A program made the position numbers and the translations under genes. This document shows, in pieces, positions 667 through 13,412 of a stretch of DNA of 64,000 nucleotides (within the stretch, counting starts at the first letter, position 1; every line of letters starts with the position of its first letter). The stretch is taken from contig NZ_DASRTS010000035.1 in NCBI RefSeq assembly GCF_035655815.1, positions 26,050 to 90,049 of the forward strand. Direction: 5' to 3'. The notes beneath the pieces are model-generated. The model was not told where the DNA came from. It searched no databases and worked only from the letters and a program-made list of their open reading frames with translations. This stretch comes from Lysobacter sp. Lineage in GTDB: Bacteria; Pseudomonadota; Gammaproteobacteria; Xanthomonadales; Xanthomonadaceae.

Positions 667-1081
667 GTGTGCCCTCCTGACGGGCGTCTCATTCGTTTGG
701 CGGTCGGTAATCGGGGTGGTGCGTGAGCGATGCTATACCTGCTGCATGCACGCGCAACGACACGCATCGCGCGGGCCTGCAACTGCAACACGAACGCGGA
801 GCCGGCCCGGGTTCCGCGTGCAGCACGAAGCGCGATGTCCTTTGCCGCGCTACTCCATTCCGATGGAAACCGCGCGCCTGGCGCGCTGCCGGAAGCCGAT
901 GCAGGCCGCCATTGGCGACCTGCGCCCGCCCCGGCCTGTTCCCGCTCGGCCGGACCCTGCTGCGGGGCAAATATTGCACATCCGGACGCGCCTGACCACT
1001 AGATGTTGGGTCGGGTTGGGCGGTCCGCAACTGGCGAGCATGGGCCCGGGCGGCTGAATGCGCTCGGCCGCCGGGGCTGGT

Positions 1082-1795
1082 TCAGGCCGGCGATCGGGAG
1101 TCCTGCGCGGTGCGGCCTCCGGCCAGCGGCAGGACGGGCTCGATCAGCGCACGCGCATGCACCAGGGATTCGACGACACGGTGGCCGAGCGAGCGCGTGG
1201 CCTCGTCGGGATGGACAAGGTCCGGCACCTGGATCGGCGTCATGCCGGCGGCGAGCGCGGCGCGCACGCCGGGGCCGGAGTCTTCCAGCACCACGCAGCG
1301 CGCGGGCTCCACGCCCAGGCGCTGCGCGGCCAGCAGGTAGATGTCCGGCGCGGGCTTGGCGTGGGCCACGTCGCTGCCGGTGATCACGTCGTGGAAATGC
1401 GGCAGCAGGCCGCAGCGCTCCAGCTTCTGCAGCGCGCGGTCGCGACGCGTGGAAGTGGCGACTGCGCGCGGGATGCCGCGCTCGTCCAGCAGTTGCAGCA
1501 GTTCGATCACGCCGGCCTTGAGCGGCAGCCCGGCTTCGACGTGTGCGTCGTAGCGCAGCTGCAGCTCGTGCAGCAGCGCGGCCACCTGCTCCTCGGCCAG
1601 CCGCTCGCGCAGCATGTCGTGGCAGACGCGGTCGGATAGGCCCACGAACGACAGCCACAGCGCGTCGTCCAGCGTCAGCCCCAGGTGCTGCGACGACTCG
1701 CGCCAGCACTGCAACAGCGCGCGCTCGCTTTCGATCATCAGGCCGTCCATGTCGAACAGGACCGCGGCGGGGGCGAAATCGATGGGCAGGCTCAT
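1082..1795 (-). CDS. HAD-superfamily hydrolase, subfamily IA (beta-phosphoglucomutase/phosphatase-like)
   Basis: DMDGLMIESE (DxDG motif I), a later TS motif, and K...EDSGPGVRAALAAGM (motifs III/IV). Start moved to the internal ATG at 1793-1795 (MSLPIDF...), which overlaps the rsuA stop by 4 nt. Confidence 0.8.
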   Translation of the reverse strand: MSLPIDFAPAAVLFDMDGLMIESERALLQCWRESSQHLGLTLDDALWLSFVGLSDRVCHDMLRERLAEEQVAALLHELQLRYDAHVEAGLPLKAGVIELLQLLDERGIPRAVATSTRRDRALQKLERCGLLPHFHDVITGSDVAHAKPAPDIYLLAAQRLGVEPARCVVLEDSGPGVRAALAAGMTPIQVPDLVHPDEATRSLGHRVVESLVHARALIEPVLPLAGGRTAQDSRSPA

Positions 1796-2505
1796 GTGGA
1801 TTGCGTGGCTCCGAACAGGCGTTGCAGGTCGGCATCGTCGAGCAGGCGCCACTGGCCCGCTGGCAGATCGCCGAGTTCAAGACCGCCGATGCGGCTGCGG
1901 TGCAGCGTGTCGACGTGATTGCCAACCGCGGCGAACATGCGGCGCACCTGGTGGTAGCGGCCTTCGGTCAGCGTGAGTGCGGCGTGGCGCGGGTCGGCCA
2001 CGTGCAGCTGCGCGGGCGCGAGCGGCGTGGTTTCCGACTCCAGCATCAGCGTGCCGCTGGCGAACACCTCGCCCTCGTCGCCGCGCAGGTCGTGCGCGAG
2101 CGTGGCCTCGTACACCTTCGCCAGCTTCGCCTTGGGCGAGACGATGCGATGCAGCAGCGTGCCGTCGTCGGTCATCAGCAGCAGGCCGCTGGTGTCGCGG
2201 TCCAGCCGGCCGACGCTGGACAGCAGTGGCGAACGCAGGCGGAAGCGCGGCGGCAGCAGCTCGTAGATGACGCGGCCGGGATCCTTCGTCGAGCAGGTGT
2301 AGCCGACCGGCTTGTGCAGCATCAGCGCCATGCCGGCGGGCGGATCGAGCGGCTCGCCGTCGATGCGGATGGTGTCGAACGGCACCTTGTCGTCGGCGTA
2401 CAGCACCTCGCCCGCGGCATCGGTAACGAGACCTTCGCGGAACATCGCGGCGACGTCCTTGCGGCTGCCGTAGCCGAGGTTGGCGATCAGCTTGACCAGT
2501 TTCAT
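1792..2505 (-). CDS. rsuA: 16S rRNA pseudouridine synthase (RsuA family)
   Basis: N-terminal S4-like region (MKLVKLIANLGYGSRKDV), catalytic GRLDRDTSGLLLMTDDG motif and HQVRRMF motif. ATG at 2503-2505 with an upstream GGAGCC RBS. Confidence 0.85.
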   Translation of the reverse strand: MKLVKLIANLGYGSRKDVAAMFREGLVTDAAGEVLYADDKVPFDTIRIDGEPLDPPAGMALMLHKPVGYTCSTKDPGRVIYELLPPRFRLRSPLLSSVGRLDRDTSGLLLMTDDGTLLHRIVSPKAKLAKVYEATLAHDLRGDEGEVFASGTLMLESETTPLAPAQLHVADPRHAALTLTEGRYHQVRRMFAAVGNHVDTLHRSRIGGLELGDLPAGQWRLLDDADLQRLFGATQST

Positions 2506-3563
2506 CGTGAGGCTCCTTCGCCCGCGCGCACCGCTTCGACCACCTTGAATCCGTCCTGCTGCGCCACCGTGCGCACCTGCGCGAAGTGCGCGGCGAGTTC
2601 GGCCTCGTACGGCAGGTGGCGATTGGCGACCAGCCACAGCCGGCCGCGCGGCTTCAGCGACTGCGCAGCCACCGCGATGAAGCGGCGGCCCAGATCAGGC
2701 CGGTCCGCGCGCGACTGCGCATGGAACGGCGGATTGCACACGATGGCGTCGTAGCGATGCTCCAGGCCGCGCGTGACGTCGTGCCAGTGGAACTGCAGCT
2801 TCACGCGCGGCGCGAACTCCGCCAGGTTGGTGCGCGCCAGTTCCAGCGCGCGCAACTCGGCTTCGTAGAGATCCAGCGCGGTGATCTGCGGACAGCGGGT
2901 CAGCAGTTCGCTCGACAGATAGGCGTAGCCGGCGCCGAGATCGGCGGCATGGCCGGAAAGATCGGTCGGCAGGTGCCCGGCCAGCAGGCGCGACGCCGCA
3001 TCGATGCGGTCCCACGCGAACACACCGGGGCGGCTGACGAAGCGCCCGTCGGCGATGGGCCGCGGCGCGTCGGCCTGCAACCATTGCTGCATGAGGTCCG
3101 CATCGGCAGGTCCATCCAGCGGCGCGGTCCAGAACACGCGGCACTTGTGCTTGGATTCGCTCGACAACGGCCCGGCCAGGCGCGCGAGATCGGCCTCGCC
3201 GGACTTCGCGCCTTCGTTGTTGGGCAGGCAGGCCACCACGCGTCCGCCGGGTGCGCAGCGTGCGACCGCGCGCGCAAGCAGCGCACGCGATTCCTCGCGC
3301 TGGCGCGGCGGCAGCACCAGCACCAGCGGATGGCGCTGCGCGTCGTCAGCCTCGACGAGGCTGAAACCGGAACGCTGCAGCGCATCGGCTTCGGGCCGCC
3401 AGCTCTGCTCGCACACCAGCCCGGGCCATGCGCGCTGGTGCAGCGGCCAGCCTTCGCGCGCGCGCAGGAACAACGCGCCGCCTTGCGCGGGCCACGCAAG
3501 CAAACCGTCCATGAACGGCATGAACAGGGTCGGCAGTGCGACGTCGCCTTCGTCGGCGCGCAT
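2502..3563 (-). CDS. rsmC: Class I SAM-dependent rRNA (guanine-N2)-methyltransferase, RsmC/RlmG family
   Basis: DLGAGYAYLS SAM-binding loop, VCNPPFH catalytic motif and LWLVANRHLPYE...GFKVVEA C-terminus. At about 353 aa the size fits RsmC. The start was chosen at ATG 3561-3563; the 555-aa track ORF is an upstream over-extension. The 4-nt overlap with rsuA suggests an operon. Confidence 0.7.
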   Translation of the reverse strand: MRADEGDVALPTLFMPFMDGLLAWPAQGGALFLRAREGWPLHQRAWPGLVCEQSWRPEADALQRSGFSLVEADDAQRHPLVLVLPPRQREESRALLARAVARCAPGGRVVACLPNNEGAKSGEADLARLAGPLSSESKHKCRVFWTAPLDGPADADLMQQWLQADAPRPIADGRFVSRPGVFAWDRIDAASRLLAGHLPTDLSGHAADLGAGYAYLSSELLTRCPQITALDLYEAELRALELARTNLAEFAPRVKLQFHWHDVTRGLEHRYDAIVCNPPFHAQSRADRPDLGRRFIAVAAQSLKPRGRLWLVANRHLPYEAELAAHFAQVRTVAQQDGFKVVEAVRAGEGASR

Positions 3564-3701
3564 GTACGGGTCCGTGCGTGTGATGGCCGTCAATTCTACG
3601 CAAGCCCCGCGGACTTCGCCGATGCCCGCCGCGGCGGCTTCATGCGGATTCAACGCGCGCCGGGCGACGATGACCGGCGTATCAATCGCAGGAGAAACGC
3701 G

Positions 3702-3962
3702 ATGCGCGCCCTTTTCGTCGGTGGTGTGGTCGACAACAGCGAACTCGATCTGGACGGCGCCGAGCCGCCGATGCACTACCCCGAGAACACCGGTGGCGGA
3801 CAACCCCGTTACCGTCTGCACCAGATCGGCCTGCGCGATGGCGAGATCGCGTATGCCGTCTACGGCGCGCCGGAACTGGCGCACGAGGAAGTGGACCGCG
3901 TGGTGCGCGAACGCGACTATCCGCGGCGTTTCAGCGCAAGGCCGCAGGGTGTTGTGCAGTAG
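3702..3962 (+). CDS. Hypothetical small protein (86 aa)
   Basis: ATG at 3702 is preceded by GGAGAA 7-8 nt upstream. Amino-acid composition is balanced (D/E/Y/V rich), unlike the Arg/Ala shadow ORFs. It is divergent from rsmC. No recognisable domain. Confidence 0.45.
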   Translation: MRALFVGGVVDNSELDLDGAEPPMHYPENTGGGQPRYRLHQIGLRDGEIAYAVYGAPELAHEEVDRVVRERDYPRRFSARPQGVVQ

Positions 3963-4196
3963 CGCGATGCCGGTTGCGATGCGTATGTAGCCCGGGCAAG
4001 GCCGCAAGTCGCACCCGGGTTGCGGCGAGGCGATACCCGGGGTGCTTCGCCTACTTGGGCCAGCTTGCGGCGACGCTTCGTTCATCGCACCGCCGCCCTC
4101 CATGGCGCAACCGTGGAACGAACGGACCACCCGGCCCGACCATCCATGGTCGTGCGTTCGGCAGACCACGCGGCCGTGCCGCGTAAGCGGCCTACC

Positions 4197-6695
4197 TCAC
4201 CCCTGCAGCTCGCGCAGCGTCACCGACGGTGGCGCATCGAGAACGCGCCGTGTCGCGAACAGGCCGGCCAGCAACGCGGCCAGCACGCCCAGCGCGGCAC
4301 CGACGGCGGCCATGCGCCAGTCCGGTTCCCACGGCAGGTCGAACACCTGCGTGGCCACCACGCCGGCCAGCACCGAGGCCGCGATGGCGGCAGTGAGGCC
4401 TGACAGAAGGCCGATGGCGGCGAACTCCGATGCCTGCGCCAGTCGCAACTGGCGACGGCTACCGCCAATGGCGCGCATCACGCCGCCTTCGAGCAGGCGT
4501 TCGTCCTGGCTCGCGCTCACTGCGGCCATCAGCACCAGCAGACCGGCCACCAGCGAGAAATAGAAGACCACTTCGACCACCGTCGACACCTGGTCGGCCG
4601 TGCTGCGCACCTGCTTGAGCACGGCGTCGATGTCGATGACCGACAGGTTGGGGAAGCGCTCCACCAGATCCGCGGTGAAGCGCGTGCGTTGCGGCGGCAC
4701 GCTGACCGCGGTGATGTGGCTGGCCGGGAATCCGTCCAGCGAACCCGGCGAGGCGATCACGAAGAAGTTGGGACGGAAGCTCTCCCATTCCACGCTGCGC
4801 AGGCTGGTGATGGTGCCGGTGAACGCCTGGCCGGCGATGTCGAACGAGATGCGGTCGCCGATCTTCCAGCCCAGGCGCTCGGCGAACTCCTCCTCCACCG
4901 ACACTTCCGGCTTCGCGGGCTTGCGCCCGTTCCAGAACTCGCCGGCGGTGACGCGGTTGTCGTCGCGCAGGTGGTCGGCCACCGACAGGTTGAACTCGCG
5001 TTCGGCCAGGCGCTGCGCGCGTGCGCCCTGTTCGACGTAATCCTTGCCGGTCACCGGCTTGCCGTTGTGGGCGACCAGACGGCCGCGGATCATCGGATAC
5101 AACGTCGGCGGCGCCACGCCCTGCTCGGCGATGAAGGCGCGCACGTCGGCGACCTGGTCGTCCTGCACATTGATGATGAAGCGGTTGGGCGCTTCCTCGG
5201 CCAGCGCGAGCTGCCAGCGGTCCAGCAGGTCGGTGCGCACGAAGGTGAGCAGCAGCAGTGCCATCAGGCCAAGGCCCAGCGCCGACACCTGCGCGATGCT
5301 CGCGCCCGCACGCCGGCTGACGTTGGCCAGGCCGTAGCGCAGGCTGCCGCGCAGGCGCGAACGCGCGCGGCGCACCACCACGATCAGCAACCACGCCAGC
5401 AGCGCGAGCACCGCCAGCGTCGCGACGATGCCCAGCAGCATCGACAGGCCCAGTGCCGCCGAGCCGGCCTTCCACCACAGCAGCGCCGCCAGACCGCCGA
5501 GACCCGCGATGGCGACGAGCCACGCGCTGGGCTCCGTCGGATCGAGATCGCGGCGCAGCACGCGCAGCGCGGGCACGCGGCGCAGCGCGAGCACCGGCGG
5601 CGCACCGAACGCCATCAGCACCACCAGGCCGACGCCGTACCCCTGCACCGCCGGCATCCAGCCCGCCGGCGGAATCGACAACTTCAGCGCCTGCGCCAGC
5701 CAGCCGCCGATGGCCCACTGCAACGCGAACGCGAGCGCGACGCCCACGCTGCTGGCAATGAGTCCCAGCATCAGCAACTCGCCCAGTTGGATGCCGACCA
5801 GCGTGCGCTGGCTGGCACCCAGGCAGCGCATCACGGCCGAACCGGACAGATGCCGCGCGCTATGCCGGCGCGCCGCCATCGCCACCGCCACCGCAGCCAG
5901 CACCACCGACACGAGCGCCGCCAGGCCTAGGAAGCGGCCGGCACGATCGAGTGCGGAGCGGATCTCCGGACGCGCGTCGGAAATGGTTTCCAGCCGCTGT
6001 CCGCGGCCGAGCGCCGGTTTGGCCATGGCGACGAATTGCTCCACGGCCGACGCGGGCCCGGCGATCACCAGCCGATAGCGGATGCGGCTGCCTTCCTGCA
6101 CCAGGCCCGTGGACGGCACGTCGGCCAGGTTGAGGAACACCTTCGGCGCGACGTTGAAGTAATCCAGCGCGGCATCCGGCTCCTGCACCACCAGCGCGGC
6201 GAGGCGGAAGCGCGCATCGCCCAGCGATACCTCATCGCCCACGCGCGCGCCGAGCGTGTCCGCGCCGGCACGGCTCATCCACACGGTGCCGCGTGCGGGC
6301 ACGTCGCCTGCGTCGCGTTCGACACCGCCTGCGTCGACGATGCGGAAACTTCCGCGCAACGGAAAGCCGCTGCCCAACGCACGCAGATCGCCGAGCTGCA
6401 GGCGCTCGCCGGCGCGGATCATGGTCTGCAGTTCCATCGTCTCGGTGCGCTGCAGCTGCGGCGCGTTGGCCGCCTCGCGCACCGCGCCGGTGATGGGCGT
6501 ATCGCCGCGCACCACCGCATCGCCGCCGAGCAGGCGATTGGCTTCGATGGCGAGCGCACGCTCCGCACGGTCCGTCACGAAGCCGACCGCCGTGACCGCG
6601 AGCACCGCCAGCACCAGCGCCGCGATCAGGATGCGCACGTCGCCCGCCGCGAGATCGCGGCGCAGCTGGCGCCACGCGAGCGTGAACGTCCTCAT
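4197..6695 (-). CDS. ybbP: ABC transporter permease with duplicated FtsX-type domains (YbbP-like)
   Basis: 832 aa with two blocks of hydrophobic helices separated by large soluble loops. Its start overlaps the upstream ATPase stop (ATGA). The tesA / ybbA-ybbP divergent synteny matches that of enterobacteria. Confidence 0.8.
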   Translation of the reverse strand: MRTFTLAWRQLRRDLAAGDVRILIAALVLAVLAVTAVGFVTDRAERALAIEANRLLGGDAVVRGDTPITGAVREAANAPQLQRTETMELQTMIRAGERLQLGDLRALGSGFPLRGSFRIVDAGGVERDAGDVPARGTVWMSRAGADTLGARVGDEVSLGDARFRLAALVVQEPDAALDYFNVAPKVFLNLADVPSTGLVQEGSRIRYRLVIAGPASAVEQFVAMAKPALGRGQRLETISDARPEIRSALDRAGRFLGLAALVSVVLAAVAVAMAARRHSARHLSGSAVMRCLGASQRTLVGIQLGELLMLGLIASSVGVALAFALQWAIGGWLAQALKLSIPPAGWMPAVQGYGVGLVVLMAFGAPPVLALRRVPALRVLRRDLDPTEPSAWLVAIAGLGGLAALLWWKAGSAALGLSMLLGIVATLAVLALLAWLLIVVVRRARSRLRGSLRYGLANVSRRAGASIAQVSALGLGLMALLLLTFVRTDLLDRWQLALAEEAPNRFIINVQDDQVADVRAFIAEQGVAPPTLYPMIRGRLVAHNGKPVTGKDYVEQGARAQRLAEREFNLSVADHLRDDNRVTAGEFWNGRKPAKPEVSVEEEFAERLGWKIGDRISFDIAGQAFTGTITSLRSVEWESFRPNFFVIASPGSLDGFPASHITAVSVPPQRTRFTADLVERFPNLSVIDIDAVLKQVRSTADQVSTVVEVVFYFSLVAGLLVLMAAVSASQDERLLEGGVMRAIGGSRRQLRLAQASEFAAIGLLSGLTAAIAASVLAGVVATQVFDLPWEPDWRMAAVGAALGVLAALLAGLFATRRVLDAPPSVTLRELQG

Positions 6696-7538: not shown

Positions 7539-8180
7539 ATGCGCTGGGTTGCGGCGATGTCGCTGGCCTTGGCCGTTGCCCTGCCCGCGTCCGCGCAGAC
7601 CGCGGCGAAGGCCACGCCCGCACCGAAGCCGGCACGCACGGTGCTGGTAATGGGCGATTCGCTGTCGGCCGGATACGGGCTGACTGCATCGCAGGGCTGG
7701 GTGGCGCTGACCGCGGACCGCATCGCGAAAACGAAGCCGGGCTGGCGCGTGGTCAACGCGAGCATCAGCGGCGAAACCACCGCCGGTGGTGCCGCGCGCA
7801 TCGATGGCGAACTCAAGCGGAACAAGCCGTCAGTGGTGGTGATCGAACTGGGCGCCAACGATGGCCTGCGCGGATTGCCGCTGGCGCAGTCGCGCAGCAA
7901 TCTCGATCGCATGATCCGTGCATCGAAGGCCGCCGGTGCGAAGGTATTGCTGATCGGCATGCGTATGCCGCCGAACCTGGGCCGCGAGTACACGCAGGGA
8001 TTCAGCGACAACTACGCCGCATTGACGAAGCAGCATGGCGTGGCGTTGCTGCCGTTCCTGCTGGAGCCGATCGCACTGGATCGCAATGCGTTCCAGGACG
8101 ACAACCTGCATCCGGTCGCAACCGCGCAACCAAAGCTGCGCGATCACGTGTGGATGCAGCTCGAGCCATTACTGCGATGA
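7539..8180 (+). CDS. tesA: SGNH/GDSL arylesterase / acyl-CoA thioesterase I (TesA-like), secreted
   Basis: Signal peptide MRWVAAMSLALAVALPASAQ, GDSLSAGYG block I, GANDGLRG block III, and DNLHP block V. Divergent from ybbA. Upstream in-frame starts exist (7455, 7497). Confidence 0.85.
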   Translation: MRWVAAMSLALAVALPASAQTAAKATPAPKPARTVLVMGDSLSAGYGLTASQGWVALTADRIAKTKPGWRVVNASISGETTAGGAARIDGELKRNKPSVVVIELGANDGLRGLPLAQSRSNLDRMIRASKAAGAKVLLIGMRMPPNLGREYTQGFSDNYAALTKQHGVALLPFLLEPIALDRNAFQDDNLHPVATAQPKLRDHVWMQLEPLLR

Positions 8181-8270
8181 CAGCGAGCCGGATCCGCGAA
8201 CAGGAATTCCATCGCACGCATCGACCACGCATCTACCGCGTGTCTACCAATCATTTCCCGACGAACGGTC

Positions 8271-8299
8271 TTGCATTCAAATTTACGAATGCGTAACGT
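8271..8299 (+). promoter_or_regulatory. Candidate sigma70 promoter (TTGCAT-N17-TAACGT) in a locally AT-rich patch
   Basis: The hexamers and 17-nt spacer were read directly from the sequence. It sits about 90 nt after the tesA stop and about 185 nt upstream of an intrinsic terminator. Confidence 0.35.
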
Positions 8300-8305
8300 G
8301 CGCGG

Positions 8306-8522
8306 CCTTCGCAGTCACACATCAATTTGATCTTCGCAACGCCATGAACATTTTCTTCCCCATCGCCCAGCACGACGCACGCAAGCCCAACGGCTTCGGT
8401 CTGCGTGCGCGCGACGAACACGGCCACTGCGACTGATCTCCTGCACACGGGAGGTCGGTCACCCCGACCTCCCGAGGAACGCGAACGCCCTCGGGTCCGC
8501 AACCCGGGGGCGTTTTCTTTTT
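8306..8522 (+). ncRNA. Candidate ~215-nt independent transcript (sRNA or tiny-ORF mRNA) bounded by a promoter and an intrinsic terminator
   Basis: Predicted TSS lies downstream of the 8271-8299 promoter. There is a perfect 10-bp hairpin at 8449-8473 and a terminator at 8484-8522. The contained 30-codon ORF (8344-8436) has no Shine-Dalgarno sequence. Confidence 0.3.
8484..8522 (+). terminator. Rho-independent terminator
   Basis: 12-bp stem AACGCCCTCGGG / CCCGGGGGCGTT (one G-U pair), 7-nt loop, followed by TTCTTTTTGG. Confidence 0.75.
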
Positions 8523-8837
8523 GGCGTTCGCAAAGGCCAACACACGATCACAACGCGATTGCATCGCGCGATCCCGAAGCATCCGGAACATGCTGGTTTC
8601 GAGGCAGGGAACGCCGTGAAGCGCTGATGCGCTGTGCCTGGATGCTTCGGCACGGGCGGCACGCGGATGCACTCGCACAACGGATTGATGTCTTCGGGTT
8701 CGCCGCCCGGAGGCGTCAGTGCACGGCACATCGGCGGAACATCCACAGCGGCACGGGTTCGTGGCGGAAGCCTCACCCTTCCGGTGCGCGCGGCGCTGCC
8801 GTGGCGTATGCCGTGGATCGATGCAGTGTGTCGTGAG

Positions 8838-8907
8838 CGGACGATAGCTCAGCAGGAAGAGCATCGGCTTCACGCCGACGCCACCGGTTCGAATCCGGTT
8901 CGTCCAC
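8838..8907 (+). ncRNA. tRNA-like element 1 (non-canonical: truncated anticodon arm, C1-A72 mismatch)
   Basis: Canonical D-arm (TA GCTC AGCAGGAA GAGC) and T-arm (ACCGG TTCGAAT CCGGT). Acceptor CGGACGA / TCGTCCA gives 6 bp plus a terminal C-A mismatch. The anticodon arm is TCGGC-TTCAC-GCCGA, a 5-nt rather than 7-nt loop. Total length is about 70 nt. The 3' end reads ...TCGTCC-ACCA if the stem is taken as 6 bp. Confidence 0.6.
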
Positions 8908-8983
8908 CACTGGATAGCTCAGTCGGGTAGAGCATCAGGTTCATCACCTGAGTGTCGCGGGTTCGATTCCCGCTCCAACGACC
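8908..8983 (+). ncRNA. tRNA-like element 2 (non-canonical: weak acceptor stem, CAT-type loop with C at position 37)
   Basis: It starts with zero spacer after element 1. D-arm is TA GCTC AGTCGGGTA GAGC. Anticodon arm is TCAGG-TTCATCA-CCTGA. Variable loop is GTGTC. T-arm is GCGGG TTCGATT CCCGC. Acceptor CACTGGA / TCCAACG pairs at only 5 of 7 positions. The 3' end is ACC-T, so no CCA is encoded. Confidence 0.6.
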
Positions 8984-9392
8984 TGTCACGTCGTTATCCA
9001 AGGGCGAAAGCCCACAACGGAAACACCCCGCGCGGTGTTCCACCGGCACGTCGCCATGTGCGTCGTGCACAACGGAACGCCGCAGCGGTGACATCGCCGA
9101 CCTGTTGCCCTCGAAGCATGAGCGACGGTTGTACGAACGCAATCCTGGCAGCGTCATCGCCATGGAGCGCGGAACGCAGCCGCCGCGTGCAGGCAGCGCA
9201 ACGGGGCCGCGATGTTGGCGTGGGGTGTTTCCATCTTCTTCTTTTCCTCCTGTCTGCAGGAGGGAGCGTGCTCGGTTTGGCGCATGCGCCGACGTATGCC
9301 GCAACCCTCTTCCAGCGAAGAGCAGCATAAGCAACGCGACAACCGATCCCTCGCGCACAAGCGGATCGGACCACCAGAGCCAACAAGGAGAC

Positions 9393-10526
9393 ATGAAGAT
9401 GTTCTGGACCAAGAGGGTCGTGATCGGTGACGGCGAGCGCGGCCTGGTGTATCGCAACCGTCAACTCGAAGCCGTGCTGAAGCCCGGCGTGTACAGCTGG
9501 TTCGATCCGCTGGACCGGATCGAAGTGAAGCTGCACAACATCGTGCTGCGCCCGGAATACGTGGGCAGCGACGAGAGTGCGCTGATCGATCGCCTCGGCG
9601 ATGCGCTCGGCGAGACCTTCGTGCTGGCCGACATCGGCATGGACGAGGTCGGCCTGGTACTGAAGAACGGCAGGATCGAAGAGGTCCTGGCGCCCGGCGA
9701 GCGTCGCCTGTACTGGAAGGGCCCGGTGTCGGTGGAGGTTCGCACGCTGTCGCTGGACGAGACGCTGGAAGTTCCGGCGGCGGTCGCCGCGCGCCTGCGC
9801 CAGTTGTCCTCGCTGGAGCGTGTGGCGGTGGTGCTGGCGGTGCCGGCGGAGTTCGCCGGCCTGGTCTTCATCGACGGCAGGCTGGCGCGCGTGCTCGATC
9901 CGGGCACCTACGCGTTCTGGAACTTCCGCCGCAACGTCGTGGCACAGTCGGTCGATCTGCGCGTGCAGTCGATCGACGTGTCGGGCCAGGAGCTGCTGAC
10001 GCGCGACAAGGTGAGCCTGCGCGTCAATCTGGCCGCCAGCTTCCGCGTCACCGACGCGGTGGCCGCGATCACGCGCGTCGCCAAGTACGGCGAGTACGTG
10101 TACCGCGAGCTGCAGTTCGGCCTGCGCAAGGCGATCTCCGCCAAGACGCTGGACGAACTGCTGGGCGACAAGGCCTCGCTGGACGCCGACATCTTCGGCT
10201 ACGTGCGCGGCCGCACCGGCGAACTCGGCATCCAACTGCTCGGCGTGGGCGTCAAGGACGTGATCCTGCCGGGCGAGATGAAGGAGATCCTCAACAGCGT
10301 CGTGCAGGCGGAGAAGGCGGCCCAGGCCAACGTGATCCGTCGTCGCGAGGAGGCGAACGCCACGCGTTCCCTGCTCAACACCGCACGTCTGATCGAGGAG
10401 AGCCCGGTGCTGATGCGCCTGAAGGAGCTGGAGGCTCTGGAGAAGGTGACCGAGAAGATCGACAAGCTGACTGTGTTCGGCGGCCTGGATGGCCTGATGA
10501 AGCAGTTGGTGAGCCTGAAGCAGTAA
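9393..10526 (+). CDS. SPFH/Band-7 (stomatin/prohibitin-like) protein, apparently soluble, with a triplicated N-terminal repeat
   Basis: AAGGAG RBS at 9385-9390 and ATG at 9393. The C-terminal half has an SPFH-like core (LLTRDKVSLRVNLAASFRV ... GIQLLGVGVKDVILPGEM ... AEKAAQANVIRRREE coiled coil). There is no N-terminal hydrophobic anchor. The 524-aa track ORF is an upstream over-extension across the tRNA-like elements. Confidence 0.85.
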   Translation: MKMFWTKRVVIGDGERGLVYRNRQLEAVLKPGVYSWFDPLDRIEVKLHNIVLRPEYVGSDESALIDRLGDALGETFVLADIGMDEVGLVLKNGRIEEVLAPGERRLYWKGPVSVEVRTLSLDETLEVPAAVAARLRQLSSLERVAVVLAVPAEFAGLVFIDGRLARVLDPGTYAFWNFRRNVVAQSVDLRVQSIDVSGQELLTRDKVSLRVNLAASFRVTDAVAAITRVAKYGEYVYRELQFGLRKAISAKTLDELLGDKASLDADIFGYVRGRTGELGIQLLGVGVKDVILPGEMKEILNSVVQAEKAAQANVIRRREEANATRSLLNTARLIEESPVLMRLKELEALEKVTEKIDKLTVFGGLDGLMKQLVSLKQ

Positions 10527-10641
10527 CCCGTGGGCCGGACGGATTCGGCCCGCGGACAGGCACGGACTGAGCAATCGCAACGACTGAAACACCGAATCAG
10601 AACGACGCCCGGCGTAGTGTCGGGCAGACAAGGACAACGTC

Positions 10642-11865
10642 ATGAACACGCAACACGATTACGAGCTCCTGCACGCCGAGGGTGCGTCCACGCCGATCAA
10701 GGGCTGGGTGCGCGGCGTGCCGGTCGAGGACAAGGCACGGCAGCAGCTGCGCAACATCGCCACCCTGCCCTTCGTCGGGCCGTGGGTGGCGGTCATGCCC
10801 GACGTGCACCTGGGCATTGGTGCGACGGTCGGATCGGTCGTGCCCACGCAGGGCGCGATCATCCCGGCCGCCGTCGGCGTCGACATCGGCTGCGGCATGG
10901 CCGCGGTCCGCACGACGCTGCGCGCCAGCGACCTGCCCGACGACCTGTCGCTGCTGCGCAATTCCATCGAGCGCAGCGTCCCGGTCGGCAACGGCCCGGG
11001 CGGCGATCATCGCCGCATTCCGGACAGCGTCGAGACGAGGCTCGCGCAGTCGGGCCTGATGGCACGGCTGGAGGTGATCCGTCGCAAGCATCCGAAGATC
11101 CGCCCCGACAAGGCGGACCGCCAGATCGGCACGCTGGGCGGCGGCAACCACTTCATCGAGATCTGCCTGGACGAGAGCGACGCGGTGTGGGTGATGCTGC
11201 ACTCGGGCTCGCGCGGCACCGGCAACCTCATCGGCACGTACTTCATCGAGCTGGCGCGCCGCCAGCTGGAGAAGCGCGTGCTCGGTTTCCACGTGCCCGA
11301 CCGCGACCTCGCGTTCTTTCTGGAAGGCGAGGACCTGTTCGCGGACTACGTGGAGGCGGTGTCGTGGGCGCAGGACTACGCGCGTGCCAACCGCGAGGCC
11401 ATGATGGGCCGCGTGCTGCACGAGATGCGCCACCGGCTGCCGAAGTTCCAGCTGGAGAAGGCGGCAGTGAACTGTCACCACAACTACGTCCAGCGCGAGG
11501 AGCACTTCGGCCAGCCGCTGCTGGTGACCCGCAAGGGCGCCGTCAGCGCACGCGAAGGCGAGCTGGGCATCATCCCGGGCAGCATGGGCGCACGCAGCTA
11601 CATCGTGCGCGGCAAGGGCAACGCGGACAGCTTCCACAGCTGCAGCCACGGCGCCGGCCGCGTGATGAGCCGCACCGCCGCCCGCGCGCAGATCACGCTG
11701 AAGCAGCACCGCGAGGCCACCGCACACGTCGAATGCCGCAAGGACGCCGGCGTGATCGACGAGTCACCCGCCGCGTACAAGGACATCGACGCGGTGATGG
11801 CCGCGCAGTCGGAGCTGGTGGACATCGTGCACACGCTGAGGCAGGTGGTGTGCGTGAAGGGGTGA
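10642..11865 (+). CDS. rtcB: RNA-splicing/repair ligase RtcB (3'-phosphate/5'-hydroxyl RNA ligase)
   Basis: 407 aa with MPDVHLGIG, GVDIGCGM, HSGSRGTGN, NCHHNY, IPGSMG and SCSHGAGR metal/GMP-histidine motifs. AAGGA RBS. It lies 115 nt downstream of the SPFH gene on the same strand. Confidence 0.95.
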   Translation: MNTQHDYELLHAEGASTPIKGWVRGVPVEDKARQQLRNIATLPFVGPWVAVMPDVHLGIGATVGSVVPTQGAIIPAAVGVDIGCGMAAVRTTLRASDLPDDLSLLRNSIERSVPVGNGPGGDHRRIPDSVETRLAQSGLMARLEVIRRKHPKIRPDKADRQIGTLGGGNHFIEICLDESDAVWVMLHSGSRGTGNLIGTYFIELARRQLEKRVLGFHVPDRDLAFFLEGEDLFADYVEAVSWAQDYARANREAMMGRVLHEMRHRLPKFQLEKAAVNCHHNYVQREEHFGQPLLVTRKGAVSAREGELGIIPGSMGARSYIVRGKGNADSFHSCSHGAGRVMSRTAARAQITLKQHREATAHVECRKDAGVIDESPAAYKDIDAVMAAQSELVDIVHTLRQVVCVKG

Positions 11866-12480
11866 GGCCACGCGCTTGCGAAGCGTAGCTTCGCGCGTGG
11901 CCGAACGCCCGGCCATGGATGGCCGGGCCGGGCGTTCCGGAGCCGATCGCGTTACGCCCTGGATGGCAGCGACACCTTCATCGAAGCACCGAACGCGGCC
12001 TGCCGCGCGGCAGGCCGAACGCCCGGCCATGGATGGCCGGGCCGGGCGTTCCGGAGCCGGTCGCGCTACGCCATGGAGGGCAGCGACACCTTCATCGAAG
12101 CAGCACGTGCGCCATGTCGCGCGTGGCCGAACGCCCGGCCATGGATGGGCGAGGAGGAATGCTTGCGCGCCACTGGCGCGCATTCCGACGAGCGCCCGGC
12201 CATGGATGGCCGGGCCGGGCTTTCCGAAGCCAGTCGCGTCGCGCCATGGATGGCAGCGACACGTTCATCGAAGCACCGAACGCGGCATGCCGTGCGACAA
12301 GCCGAACACCGGCCATGGATGGGCAAGGAGGAATGCTTGCGCGCCACTGGCGCGCGTTCCGACGAACGCCCGGCCATGGATTGGCCGGACCGGGGCTCCA
12401 AAGCCAGTCGCGCTACGCCATGGATGGCAGCCACACGTTCAATCGAAGCACCAAGCGCGGCATGTCGTCATTTCCGCAAG
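11866..12480. repeat. Mosaic array of palindromic intergenic repeat modules (BIME/REP-like), at least 6 core copies
   Basis: It starts with a 10-bp hairpin at 11866-11902. The core GAACGCCCGGCCATGGATGGCCGGGCCGGGCGTTCC recurs at about 11903, 12017, 12129, 12190, 12303 and 12364. A second module, CGCCATGGATGGCAGCGACAC.TTCATCGAAGCA, recurs 4 times. A third module, GGAGGAATGCTTGCGCGCCACTGGCGCGC.TTCCGACGA, recurs twice. Confidence 0.85.
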
Positions 12481-12602
12481 ACCGGAATCCACGGACCTTT
12501 TTTGAGCCTTGCTGTCCGCCTGCTGAAACATAGTTCCGCGCTAGCCTGGCTGGCAGAAGCTATGGCTCTCGTAATCAGGTGCACCGGGAAAGCGTGAAAC
12601 GT

Positions 12603-12630
12603 CCCTGGATCCCCGCCTTCGCGGGGACGA
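12603..12630. repeat. Solo diverged copy of the ATTCCC-N8-GGGAAT-type palindrome (GGATCCCCGCCTTCGCGGGGACGA)
   Basis: Palindrome TCCCCGC-CTTC-GCGGGGA. It is related to the termini of the elements at 34.1-34.4 kb. Confidence 0.5.
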
Positions 12631-12660
12631 GCAAAGGCAACAGCAACACCATCAGTAACG

Positions 12661-12715
12661 ACATCAAACATCAACAACATCAAACATCAACAACATCACG
12701 ACATCAGACATCAAT
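12661..12715. repeat. A/C-rich microsatellite: (ACATCAAACATCAACA) x2, then degenerate ACATCANN units
   Basis: Exact 16-nt duplication at 12661-12676 and 12677-12692, followed by ACATCACG, ACATCAGA and CATCAATG. Confidence 0.8.
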
Positions 12716-12923
12716 GCCGCGCGGCAGCCCGAACGCCCGACCATGAATGCCATCGATCTTCGTCGCATGCGGCGCATTACGCCTTCGGCTAATGCGCCCT
12801 ACGTGGATGGGCGGTACGGCCGGATATGACTCTGTATGGCGCAATAACATTGCGCCACGGCGCTCTCGATCTCCATCGCATGCGGCGCATTACGACCTAG
12901 CCTTTGCGCCCCACGTGGGTTTG

Positions 12924-13412
12924 TCAGGCGCGTCGCAATGCTCCCGGCGCAGCGGCGAAACGCATGGCCAGTTGCCAGAGCGCCGAGATCGCCAGGCATG
13001 CCACCACCAGCACGCTCCAGTCGGACGATGGCGTGGAGGAAGCCGGCCACAGCGCAGCAAACGCCGGCCACCACGACGCGCCGTAAGCATCGACGACCAC
13101 CATCGCCGCGACCACCAGCGCGCCCATCAACCCGCGCAACAGCCAGCGTTCCACGCGTTCGCCGAACATCTGCGCGTCGGCCACGCGCTGCACGATCTGC
13201 GCGGCCAGGTCGAACGGCAGCGGTTCCATCGCGGGCGTGCGCAATGCGCGCGCGATCAGCCGGTACTCGGCCAGGCGCGAATCGGCCGGGTCCAGCGGCA
13301 GGCCACGGCGTTCCTGTTGCAGCGCGCGTTCCTGCGCACGCCATTCCTCGTCGTGCCGGCGCCATCCGGCATCGTGCGGTGGATCGGGGCGTCGATCGTT
13401 CGTCGTGTTCAT
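12924..13412 (-). CDS. Putative anti-sigma factor / membrane protein co-transcribed with the ECF sigma factor
   Basis: 162 aa. Its ATG at 13410-13412 overlaps the sigma-factor stop (ATGA). It has a charged N-terminal region and two C-terminal hydrophobic helices (LMGALVVAAMVVV..., WSVLVVACLAISALW). No zinc-binding HxxxCxxC motif is visible. Confidence 0.6.
   Translation of the reverse strand: MNTTNDRRPDPPHDAGWRRHDEEWRAQERALQQERRGLPLDPADSRLAEYRLIARALRTPAMEPLPFDLAAQIVQRVADAQMFGERVERWLLRGLMGALVVAAMVVVDAYGASWWPAFAALWPASSTPSSDWSVLVVACLAISALWQLAMRFAAAPGALRRA

Follow-up and report, generated by a model that had tools for sequence, protein, structure and literature searches.

Why should two RNA elements shaped like tRNAs stand immediately before the genes of a soluble SPFH/Band-7 protein and of an RNA ligase, RtcB? 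The question is raised by a locus of Lysobacter sp., located in a stretch of 64,000 nucleotides (RefSeq assembly GCF_035655815.1, contig NZ_DASRTS010000035.1, positions 26,050 to 90,049) that is called the window here and to whose numbering all coordinates refer. A previous sequence-only reading had noticed two abutting, non-canonical tRNA-shaped elements (8838-8983), and both are matched by ARAGORN and Rfam, with the oddities of their loops and acceptor stems plain to see. It had also taken these 146 nucleotides as the whole non-coding RNA, a view that has to be revised, since a 5' domain (8735-8825) exists in at least 62 loci from all the clades sampled and a 3' domain (9019-9232) in Xanthomonadales. 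The comparison of related loci indicates that the structured RNA is about 0.5 kb long, from 8735 to about 9250, the tRNA-like pair being only its middle, and that RNA and SPFH protein form an invariant core, with RtcB as its commonest third partner. To the explanation that this is a dedicated ribonucleoprotein module, in which an RNA-SPFH particle would work with RNA-repair enzymes, we give a little better than even credence. The locus is composed of the following elements:

8735-8825, plus strand: four-helix 5' domain of the RNA (alignment A3, model R2)
8838-8908, plus strand: distal tRNA-like unit, with a 6-bp acceptor stem, a 1:72 mismatch, a D arm, an arm with a 5-nt loop, a T arm and a 3' ACCA
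8908-8983, plus strand: proximal tRNA-like unit, with near-invariant D and T arms, the 7-nt loop TTCATCA and four conserved inner acceptor pairs; it forms with the distal unit the pair called by ARAGORN and Rfam RF00005
9019-9232, plus strand: 3' domain, closed by a long-range helix of 9019-9029 with 9222-9232 (inverted repeat I17)
9393-10526 (likely start 9399), plus strand: SPFH/Band-7 gene (Pfam Band_7)
10642-11865, plus strand: complete rtcB gene (Pfam RtcB, PF01139)

The association between RNA and protein was studied in 80 genomic loci, retrieved using an alignment of 43 diverse members of the SPFH family, which comprises 584 cluster representatives (50% identity clustering) at E <= 1e-30. 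These loci come from Xanthomonadales, Stenotrophomonas, Burkholderia, Acidovorax, Delftia and Pseudomonas, and further from Competibacter, Marinicella, Methylococcaceae, one Chloroflexota metagenome-assembled genome (MAG) and one Moduliflexus MAG. In most of them ARAGORN places tRNA-like calls at a distance of 250-600 nt before the SPFH gene, often as abutting pairs and with varying 'anticodons'; taking into account that this program alone missed the unit in about 20 loci, a covariance model (R1) was built from 53 proximal units, to which the unit of the window scores 86.2 bits. With R1, a tRNA-like unit is found in all 74 loci having at least 700 nt of upstream sequence, within 1 kb of the SPFH gene and always on its strand. 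By this comparison, the RNA-SPFH linkage is not a product of chance. The earlier proposal had been made to depend on two comparative predictions, synteny outside close relatives and covariation of the tRNA-like fold; the first is borne out in gamma- and betaproteobacteria and two other phyla, and the second by strong covariation with many compensatory changes.

These changes are best appreciated in the two units themselves. They are the only tRNA calls of ARAGORN in the window, tRNA-SeC(tca) at 8838-8908 and tRNA-Met(cat) at 8908-8983, both on the plus strand, and the Rfam tRNA model (RF00005, gathering score 29) gives them 50.2 bits (distal) and 52.7 bits (proximal). Neither one combines the traits of a decoding tRNA, namely a 7-bp acceptor stem, a 7-nt anticodon loop and an anticodon conserved among orthologues: a 5-nt loop replaces the anticodon loop of the distal unit, which also carries a C1/A72 mismatch, and acceptor positions 2:71 and 3:70 are mismatched in the proximal unit, whose 7-nt loop is normal-looking. 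In a MAFFT alignment of the proximal unit made from sequence only (A2, 53 loci), 92% of the cells are standard-paired versus 69% after shuffling, and the covariation score of 0.60, versus 0.16, is reached by none of 500 shuffles, slid controls being 36-47% paired. Stem by stem, this alignment shows 99% pairing in the anticodon-type stem, each of whose five pairs has undergone double changes, full pairing (100%) in the T stem and no variation in the D stem. In the acceptor stem conservation is limited to the four inner pairs; the outer three are unpaired in 40-55% of the loci, which is explained by a further hairpin (hairpin A, see below) that in the clade of the window takes up the outer 3' acceptor strand. 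The 19 columns that are invariant in the 53 proximal units correspond to D-arm and T-arm nucleotides forming the tRNA elbow.

The proximal loop, on the other side, is free in sequence and in length, ranging from 3 to 8 nt across loci, with the triplets CAT, TGT, TTT, GTT, AAG and CTC. Loci without RtcR, the sigma-54-dependent regulator of RNA-repair operons, have a 7-nt loop in 47 of 57 cases, mostly anticodon-loop-like (YU-NNN-RA) and with CAT as the commonest triplet, and a GNRA or UUCG tetraloop-type cap is present in 12 of 14 RtcR-linked loci. The loop may thus be of importance only in the absence of RtcR, a suggestion to be treated as a lead, as few clades are involved and the effect is confounded by clade.

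Regarding the distal unit, its minimum free energy fold is a cloverleaf (z = -3.1), and in alignment A7 (25 loci) its acceptor stem is 85.5% paired and its D and T stems 98% each, with double changes at 17 pairs and a recurrent 1:72 mismatch. MAFFT mis-registers its variable arm, so that the 46% pairing obtained for that helix is an underestimate. In about 50 loci the distal T-loop motif ends about 21 nt ahead of the proximal unit and is followed by an NCCA end (ACCA in the window) placed exactly at the start of the proximal unit. Where the two units share this last base, cmsearch fails to report the distal one, probably by overlap removal, and its presence was judged by the T-loop motif and a separate alignment. 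The compensatory changes show, at the level of sequence comparison, that the tRNA-like folds are under selection, being maintained and not decaying, and a conserved elbow plus NCCA with a free loop fits a shape mimic rather than a decoding tRNA.

Two other identities were considered for the units. That of YrlA (RF02553) was rejected, as the match reaches 25.1 bits against a gathering score of 69 and covers model positions 28-81 only; weak YrlA matches at the unit junctions (25-33 bits) reflect a T arm followed by a D arm, the same order as in the matched part of YrlA. A match to a plastid-UTR family of Rfam was also discarded, since it is weak and reflects tRNA-likeness only.

Upstream of the units, the alignments revealed a conserved block in every clade. 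Its four helices are arranged as follows, all on the plus strand:

8741-8745 with 8814-8818: P1, the closing helix
8746-8751: CAGCGG junction
8750-8751 and 8753-8757 with 8776-8782: P2 hairpin
8784-8789 (GTGCGC) with 8804-8809 (GCGTAT): P3
8791-8794 with 8798-8801: P4, a hairpin enclosed by P3

RNAalifold recovered P2 and P3 unguided, and one pair of P3 is U-A in 21 loci and C-G in 20. In alignment A3 (MAFFT, 41 loci) 88% of the cells are paired versus 66% when shuffled, with a covariation score of 0.61 versus 0.20 (0 of 500 shuffles) and slid controls at 30-48%. A covariance model of the domain (R2) matches 62 loci, each exactly once and with the position and strand expected (68.3 bits in the window), and has no further match at E <= 0.1 in the 1.0 Mb searched. 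In the model-fitted alignment A6, which leans towards the structure of R2, P2 is 97.5% paired, P3 98.7%, P4 88% and P1 70%. No family of Rfam 15 matches the 5' domain, nor was any Rfam match found for the 3' parts of the RNA; a weak ctRNA_pGA1 match is just the terminator at 8483-8515. The TGGCGC-type motif of the 5' domain was considered as a sigma-54 site and rejected, given that the GG-GC spacing is 1-2 bases short of N10 (L027, L031, L035), that the flanking hairpin covaries and that the RtcR loci have their true promoter further upstream.

Downstream of the units, the sequence continues up to the SPFH start codon with these elements, again on the plus strand:

8977-8995: hairpin A, AACGAC / loop CTGTCAC / GTCGTT, whose 5' strand overlaps the proximal outer 3' acceptor strand
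9002-9013: hairpin B, GGGC GAAA GCCC, with a GNRA tetraloop
9233-9251: U/C-rich tract, read from the sequence, directly 3' of the long-range helix
9343-9349 (CCGATCC) with 9363-9369 (GGATCGG): pre-start hairpin, conserved at the end of the Xanthomonadales alignment
9343-9390: block conserved in the Xanthomonadales alignment, including the motif ACCACCAGAGCC and the ribosome-binding site AAGGAG (9385-9390)

In 18 Xanthomonadales loci, the long-range helix that closes the 3' domain is 92% paired, with compensatory changes at 9 of its 11 pairs and slid controls at 36-50%. Hairpin A is conserved in this order (87% paired, with double changes at four pairs and a conserved CTGTCAC loop), and hairpin B is 92% paired in the alignment of the clade (A5), one of its pairs being GC in nine loci and AU in eight. 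With these data, covariation is strong in all four parts of the RNA (proximal unit, distal unit, 5' domain and 3' domain). The T-rich run that follows the long-range helix is conserved in the clade alignment, and the U/C-rich tract could by its position constitute the 3' end of the RNA or an attenuator; the simple terminator scan does not flag it because of the long enclosed loop. Within the 3' domain there is a second GCAGCGG-short hairpin-GCCG motif (9082-9101), near-invariant in Xanthomonadales; as it is similar to the CAGCGG/P2/CCGG junction in the 5' domain, the two may represent one protein-binding motif in repeated form. Other clades have conserved structured blocks of their own between the units and the SPFH start codon, and in one group an extra T-arm minihelix lies downstream of a single full unit. 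A coding origin of 8952-9392 was rejected, as the in-frame upstream extension has no Pfam match and the relatives align as conserved structural blocks separated by gaps of variable length.

The protein partner was described in the earlier reading as a 377-aa SPFH/Band-7 protein lacking a membrane anchor, and so it proves to be: Pfam Band_7 covers residues 150-321 of 377 (E 7e-34), and no N-terminal hydrophobic hairpin or anchor was found by hydropathy or in an AlphaFold2 model, in which beta strands begin at residue 6. The sole hydrophobic patch (Kyte-Doolittle value 1.92 around residue 144) is modelled as beta strands. The open reading frame (ORF) has two in-frame ATGs, at 9393 and 9399; the second is probably the true start, being favoured by the spacing of the ribosome-binding site AAGGAG and by a 375-aa database entry, a 'slipin family protein' of Lysobacter sp. 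(NCBI) to which the protein is 100% identical. Members of the family are mostly 365-395 aa long, some longer ones having more N-terminal repeats.

The AlphaFold2 model, a monomer obtained from a 43-sequence alignment (pLDDT 88.9), has two extra beta-strand modules (residues ~6-49 and ~76-120), each then followed by helices, an SPFH domain (~145-291) and long C-terminal helices (294-355). The nearest solved structures by sequence are stomatins (PDB stomatin, E 5e-22), and stomatin is also the best Foldseek match (4e-16). The longest Foldseek alignments are those with the major vault protein (MVP), of 414-484 columns, covering nearly the whole chain (E ~1e-10) with low TM-scores of 0.36-0.44 (query-normalised). 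As modelled, the architecture is like that of MVP, with beta-repeats, an SPFH domain and a long helix.

With respect to the third partner, the claim that a complete RtcB with intact catalytic motifs follows 115 nt after the SPFH stop codon was found correct: Pfam RtcB matches over profile positions 1-426 of 426 (416 bits), and the translation contains the motifs DIGCGM, GGGNHFIE, HSGSRG, NCHHNY and SHGAGR, which we take, from the E. coli and Pyrococcus RtcB, to supply the metal-binding Cys, His and Asp residues and the GMP-accepting His. Its PDB relatives are the RtcB proteins of Thermus and Pyrococcus, and the enzyme is of the 3'-phosphate/5'-OH RNA ligase type. As for the three-part module conceived originally (SPFH, RtcB and tRNA-like RNA), the bond between RNA and SPFH gene is invariant, while RtcB turns out to be frequent and not obligatory: of the 62 loci whose downstream sequence extends for 3.5 kb or more, 45 have it. 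Its gene follows the SPFH gene in the same orientation, with a start no more than 2.5 kb beyond the SPFH stop codon, in 42 of the 62. In the 17 loci without RtcB, the downstream genes sampled are unrelated (transporters, a TPR (tetratricopeptide repeat) regulator, an IS66 transposase).

A divergent rtcR gene is present in 14 related loci, the betaproteobacterial and Pseudomonas relatives having RtcR and sigma-54. In the RtcR-linked loci a sigma-54 promoter, CTGGCACG-N4-TGGCA, is located about 25 nt upstream of the 5' domain. As it stands before the RNA, and as no second candidate for a promoter was noticed ahead of the SPFH gene in these loci, the RNA, SPFH and rtcB of the RtcR lineages are, judging by their sequences, probably a single RtcR-controlled transcript. 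At the window locus the hallmarks of the classical rtcBA operon under RtcR (divergent rtcR, sigma-54 promoter, rtcA) are missing. No tblastn match to RtcR exists anywhere in the window, and a sigma-54 consensus search of it gave seven matches versus 15.5 expected by chance, none of them near the locus. No RtcA, Ro/TROVE, archease or PrfH match came from the neighbouring ORFs that were scanned, which reach to about 5 kb on either side. The original description of the locus as neither rtcBA nor rsr-Y RNA-rtcB agrees with the absence of RtcR from the window and of RtcA and Ro/TROVE from these ORFs.

Some relatives carry other partners. In an E. coli variant, present in 1629 of 5426 complete genomes, a slipin gene lies with that of the RlaP nucleotidyltransferase (PF10127) between yjbD and lysC. 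In the enterobacterial loci (E. coli, Citrobacter; L086 5283-7736, L087, L085 5540-7913) RlaP stands in place of RtcB, and the Citrobacter freundii variant keeps the divergent rtcR and the sigma-54 promoter. The RNA of this variant looks, by eye, as if reduced to a 5' domain-type block and a T-arm/acceptor minihelix, with no R2 match and no RNA annotation by the Prokaryotic Genome Annotation Pipeline (PGAP); in strain WAT, a zeta-toxin gene adjoins the module. Between SPFH and rtcB, some loci encode a ClpP-like SDH protease/NfeD-like protein (L036 7148-8233, L038 2875-3903), a small treble-clef zinc-finger protein (L079 7212-7574) or, in betaproteobacteria, proteins of about 250 aa (e.g., L060 7164-7910). 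The latter have no Pfam match in the five loci tested (L043, L054, L060, L062, L065), and that of L060 is not RlaP, showing no similarity to the E. coli protein. In L060, an Acidovorax MAG, an RNase P RNA gene (Rfam, 194.8 bits) lies beside rtcR at 3219-3654 on the minus strand, about 2 kb from the tRNA-like units, which may be coincidental local synteny.

Long tRNA arrays adjoin the module in 13 of the 80 loci and in one 94-kb IMG/VR contig. Each array counts from 3 to 24 or more tRNA genes of canonical appearance, shares the strand of the module and stands shortly before the 5' domain; the places are these:

L023, L032, L036, L038, L040, L041, L043, L048, L049, L058, L065, L068 and L075: array upstream of position 5400
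L082: array at 917-5400

The space between array and 5' domain holds an HNH endonuclease ORF of about 190 aa in L032 and L048, and in several other array loci an ORF of about this size has a similar location.

Is this, then, a known system? Burroughs and Aravind (Nucleic Acids Res 2016) predicted, as reported by Wang et al. (bioRxiv 10.1101/312249), an RtcB encoded beside a Band-7 protein and a tRNA-resembling 'b7a-tRNA', the latter being described as 'not validated experimentally' as of 2018 in that same preprint. A 2026 preprint calls the proteins 'MVP homologs' that share operons with non-coding RNAs and RtcB, and indicates that Burroughs and Aravind had already viewed the protein as homologous to MVP. 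The literature search yielded no account of the Band-7/b7a-tRNA/RtcB system being put to an experimental test. The prediction had been cited in the sequence-only reading, and the locus matches it as far as the citing papers convey it. The system, as there portrayed, is defined by an anchor-less Band-7/MVP-like protein, an upstream tRNA-like RNA, an adjacent RtcB and a patchy spread, and the window has a soluble MVP-like Band-7 protein, a conserved tRNA-like RNA upstream on the same strand and an adjacent RtcB; on this description, the locus is a typical member. What may be new here is the universal 5' domain, the NCCA-joined tandem, the Xanthomonadales 3' domain, the optional character of RtcB and the link to tRNA arrays, as may be the tetraloop variants of the RtcR-linked clades.

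Other systems offer partial parallels. The Ro60 (Rsr)-Y RNA (YrlA/YrlB)-RtcB operon of Salmonella and Deinococcus also joins a non-coding RNA with a tRNA-like module, a ring or scaffold RNA-binding protein and RtcB; it is under RtcR/sigma-54 in many species, and its RNA is thought to tether the protein to an effector. However, the window's protein has the unrelated SPFH fold, there is no Ro/TROVE protein among the ORFs scanned and YrlA stays below gathering. The vault resembles the system in the modelled architecture of the protein (N-terminal beta-repeat modules, SPFH-like shoulder, long helix) and in having an associated small structured RNA. MVP has nine repeats, whereas the window protein has two extra repeats only and its best matches in sequence and fold are stomatins; moreover, no TEP1/TROVE or PARP partner accompanies it, its RNA is much longer and tRNA-like, and a cage is suggested by its relatives only. 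Membrane SPFH scaffolds (stomatin/slipin, HflK/C, QmcA-YbbJ with NfeD) share the homologous SPFH core and the C-terminal helix, but the protein studied here lacks their N-terminal membrane hairpin, no NfeD partner was found in the window, and its neighbours are RNA and RNA-repair genes instead of proteases. Finally, the array loci resemble the cyanobacterial L-arrays with HNH and a co-regulated rtcB (Santamaria-Gomez et al., Nucleic Acids Res 2021, PMC8421152), an article in which a term search found no mention of SPFH, Band 7 or stomatin; for a cyanobacterial array, a sponge role has been proposed in the literature. The window itself, unlike them, has no array.

Around the module, the neighbouring genes are not related to RNA repair, according to Pfam: an FtsX permease, an ABC ATPase and a GDSL/TesA esterase upstream, and ORFs without Pfam match and an isochorismatase-domain protein downstream. 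A terminator scan of 8100-13100 found two terminators and none between the RNA and the SPFH gene, and a sigma-70 promoter scan of the same region found none. One of the two terminators, a strong one (8483-8515; 14-bp stem plus T-run), stands between the GDSL/TesA gene and the conserved RNA and probably ends the upstream transcription unit; ahead of it, at 8344-8436, there is a 30-aa ORF, MNIFFPIAQHDARKPNGFGLRARDEHGHCD. On the other side of the module, this feature is found:

11859-11909, plus strand: GC-rich hairpin overlapping the rtcB stop codon, with arms 11859-11875 and 11893-11909 (inverted repeat I21)

It is likely the end of the transcription unit, a role suggested by its position, as it has no T-run. 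The insulation by about 1 kb of non-coding DNA on both flanks, claimed previously, fits the side downstream of rtcB, where 11866-12760 is a field of REP-like (repetitive extragenic palindromic) repeats, and fails upstream, where at least 8735-9250 is conserved structured RNA. In the field, a 35-nt unit containing the palindrome GCCCGGCCATGGATGGCCGGGC is present six times in 11890-12760, inside a larger unit (about 133 nt) of which there are four copies, and one further copy lies 8 kb away (4134-4156, minus strand). It looks like ordinary repetitive extragenic DNA outside the module.

How could such a module work? In the explanation that we favour, the SPFH protein would oligomerise into a soluble ring or cage, by analogy with other SPFH proteins and the vault, and the invariant 5' domain (and the 3' domain) would be the protein-binding part of the RNA. 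The tRNA-like units would act as tRNA mimics through their D/T-loop elbow and the NCCA acceptor end, and in this way could tether or present either repair enzymes that recognise tRNA (RtcB in this locus, and in others RlaP and RtcA) or broken tRNAs, in a manner analogous to the tethering of Ro60 to an effector by Y RNA. An RNase P cut at the proximal 5' end (~8908) might release the distal unit with an ...ACCA 3' end. The module would help to reseal tRNAs or rRNA cut by ribotoxins or stress nucleases. A more elaborate version, in which the ~500-nt multi-domain RNA, with a 5' domain of an undescribed family, and the MVP-like SPFH protein make up a vault-like platform for tRNA repair, with the proximal loop as a built-in damage sensor where RtcR is missing, is clearly more doubtful and is put forward as a tentative idea.

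Several observations weigh against an RNA-SPFH repair particle. Oligomer, cage and RNA binding are extrapolated from relatives of the protein, and the AlphaFold2 model is monomeric. As 17 of the 62 loci have no RtcB, RNA repair may not be the core function. No PADLOC defence-system model matches the SPFH protein or RtcB. The homologue of P. aeruginosa, PA4582/PaFlo8, is encoded in an RtcR-controlled operon with rtcB, RlaP and rtcA, RtcR being activated by tRNA 5' halves ending in a cyclic phosphate, and deletion of PaFlo8 was without effect on growth, secreted virulence factors, virulence in Galleria, motility and biofilm and in peroxide assays, RNA damage not being among the conditions described. 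The RNA occupies, moreover, the position of a 5' leader, where a purely cis-regulatory role is a rival.

This rival, the main one, holds that the structured RNA acts in cis, as a leader that would control SPFH and rtcB by attenuation or sensing, and we regard it as unlikely. The units would report the tRNA pool or the state of the enzymes that cleave or process tRNAs. The helix and the U-rich tract (9222-9251) would terminate conditionally, with read-through when the tRNA-like part is cleaved or misfolded, and where RtcR is absent, as in this lineage, the RNA would replace it as the damage sensor. The RNA indeed fills the whole space from the promoter region to the SPFH start codon, the long-range helix is followed by a U/C-rich run and, by eye in A5, the 5' strand of the helix (9019-9027) can pair locally with 9035-9043 in about half of the clade. 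Yet this alternative hairpin is not conserved across the clade, and the simple scan flags no intrinsic terminator at 9222-9251. The opposition between 7-nt loops (47/57 RtcR-less loci) and tetraloop-type caps (12/14 RtcR-linked loci) would suit a sensor, but the correlation rests on few clades and few independent events. The 5' domain and the units are kept in the RtcR/sigma-54 loci, where a sensor already exists, and an encoded NCCA at the unit junction together with a tRNA-grade elbow point to a processed, folded RNA product.

It is quite improbable that the units are decoys or sponges for tRNA-targeting toxins (anticodon or acceptor-end nucleases), with RtcB resealing either the units or the real tRNAs. 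Loop sequences that differ even among close relatives, a rapid diversification expected in conflict, and the linkage to RtcB and, in 13 loci, to long tRNA arrays are compatible with bait. The general role as anticodon-nuclease bait contemplated in the earlier reading is nevertheless weakened by a variable anticodon loop and by the tetraloops of the RtcR-linked clades: the distal unit has a 5-nt or tetraloop cap, and the proximal unit, tetraloop-capped in 12 of 14 RtcR-linked loci, offers no anticodon-loop target there. A single-copy RNA would also be a poor sponge for an abundant tRNA pool, and the decoy leaves the invariant 5' domain and the strict coupling with SPFH unexplained.

A similarly slim chance is given to the units being mainly processing signals, a tRNA punctuation with no function of its own at which cuts by RNase P and RNase Z would detach the SPFH-rtcB mRNA from the RNA of the 5' domain. 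They do abut exactly, with NCCA at the junction, like co-transcribed tRNA genes, and conserve the elbow nucleotides recognised by RNase P; but the conservation of D and T arms (19 invariant columns in 53 loci) exceeds what processing needs, and in the clade of the window the proximal 3' acceptor strand is taken by hairpin A, making it a poor RNase Z substrate. That SPFH-rtcB has by chance come to lie beside normal tRNA genes or decaying ones, such as a former integration site might leave behind, is hardly credible, for even though ARAGORN and Rfam both call the units tRNAs, the arrangement is the same in 74 of 74 loci of gamma- and betaproteobacteria and of single Chloroflexota and Moduliflexus MAGs, the 'anticodons' are not conserved between orthologous loci, the distal 5-nt loop and the proximal acceptor mismatches are odd for a tRNA, and the compensatory changes denote a maintained fold, so that the comparative data contradict it.

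If an RNA-SPFH particle working with RtcB is indeed what this locus encodes, bacteria would have, besides Ro/Y RNA and independently of it, a second system in which an RNA-protein cofactor serves RNA repair. They would likewise offer an experimentally accessible relative of the vault, a particle that in eukaryotes still lacks an explanation of its function and of its RNA component. Taking into account that the system is widespread (584 family representatives; the RlaP variant of E. coli; another variant in the rtc operon of P. aeruginosa), genetics and biochemistry are within reach, and the supported folds, that is, the 5' domain, the tandem units and the 3' domain, are concrete targets for mutagenesis, crosslinking and immunoprecipitation (CLIP) and cryo-electron microscopy.

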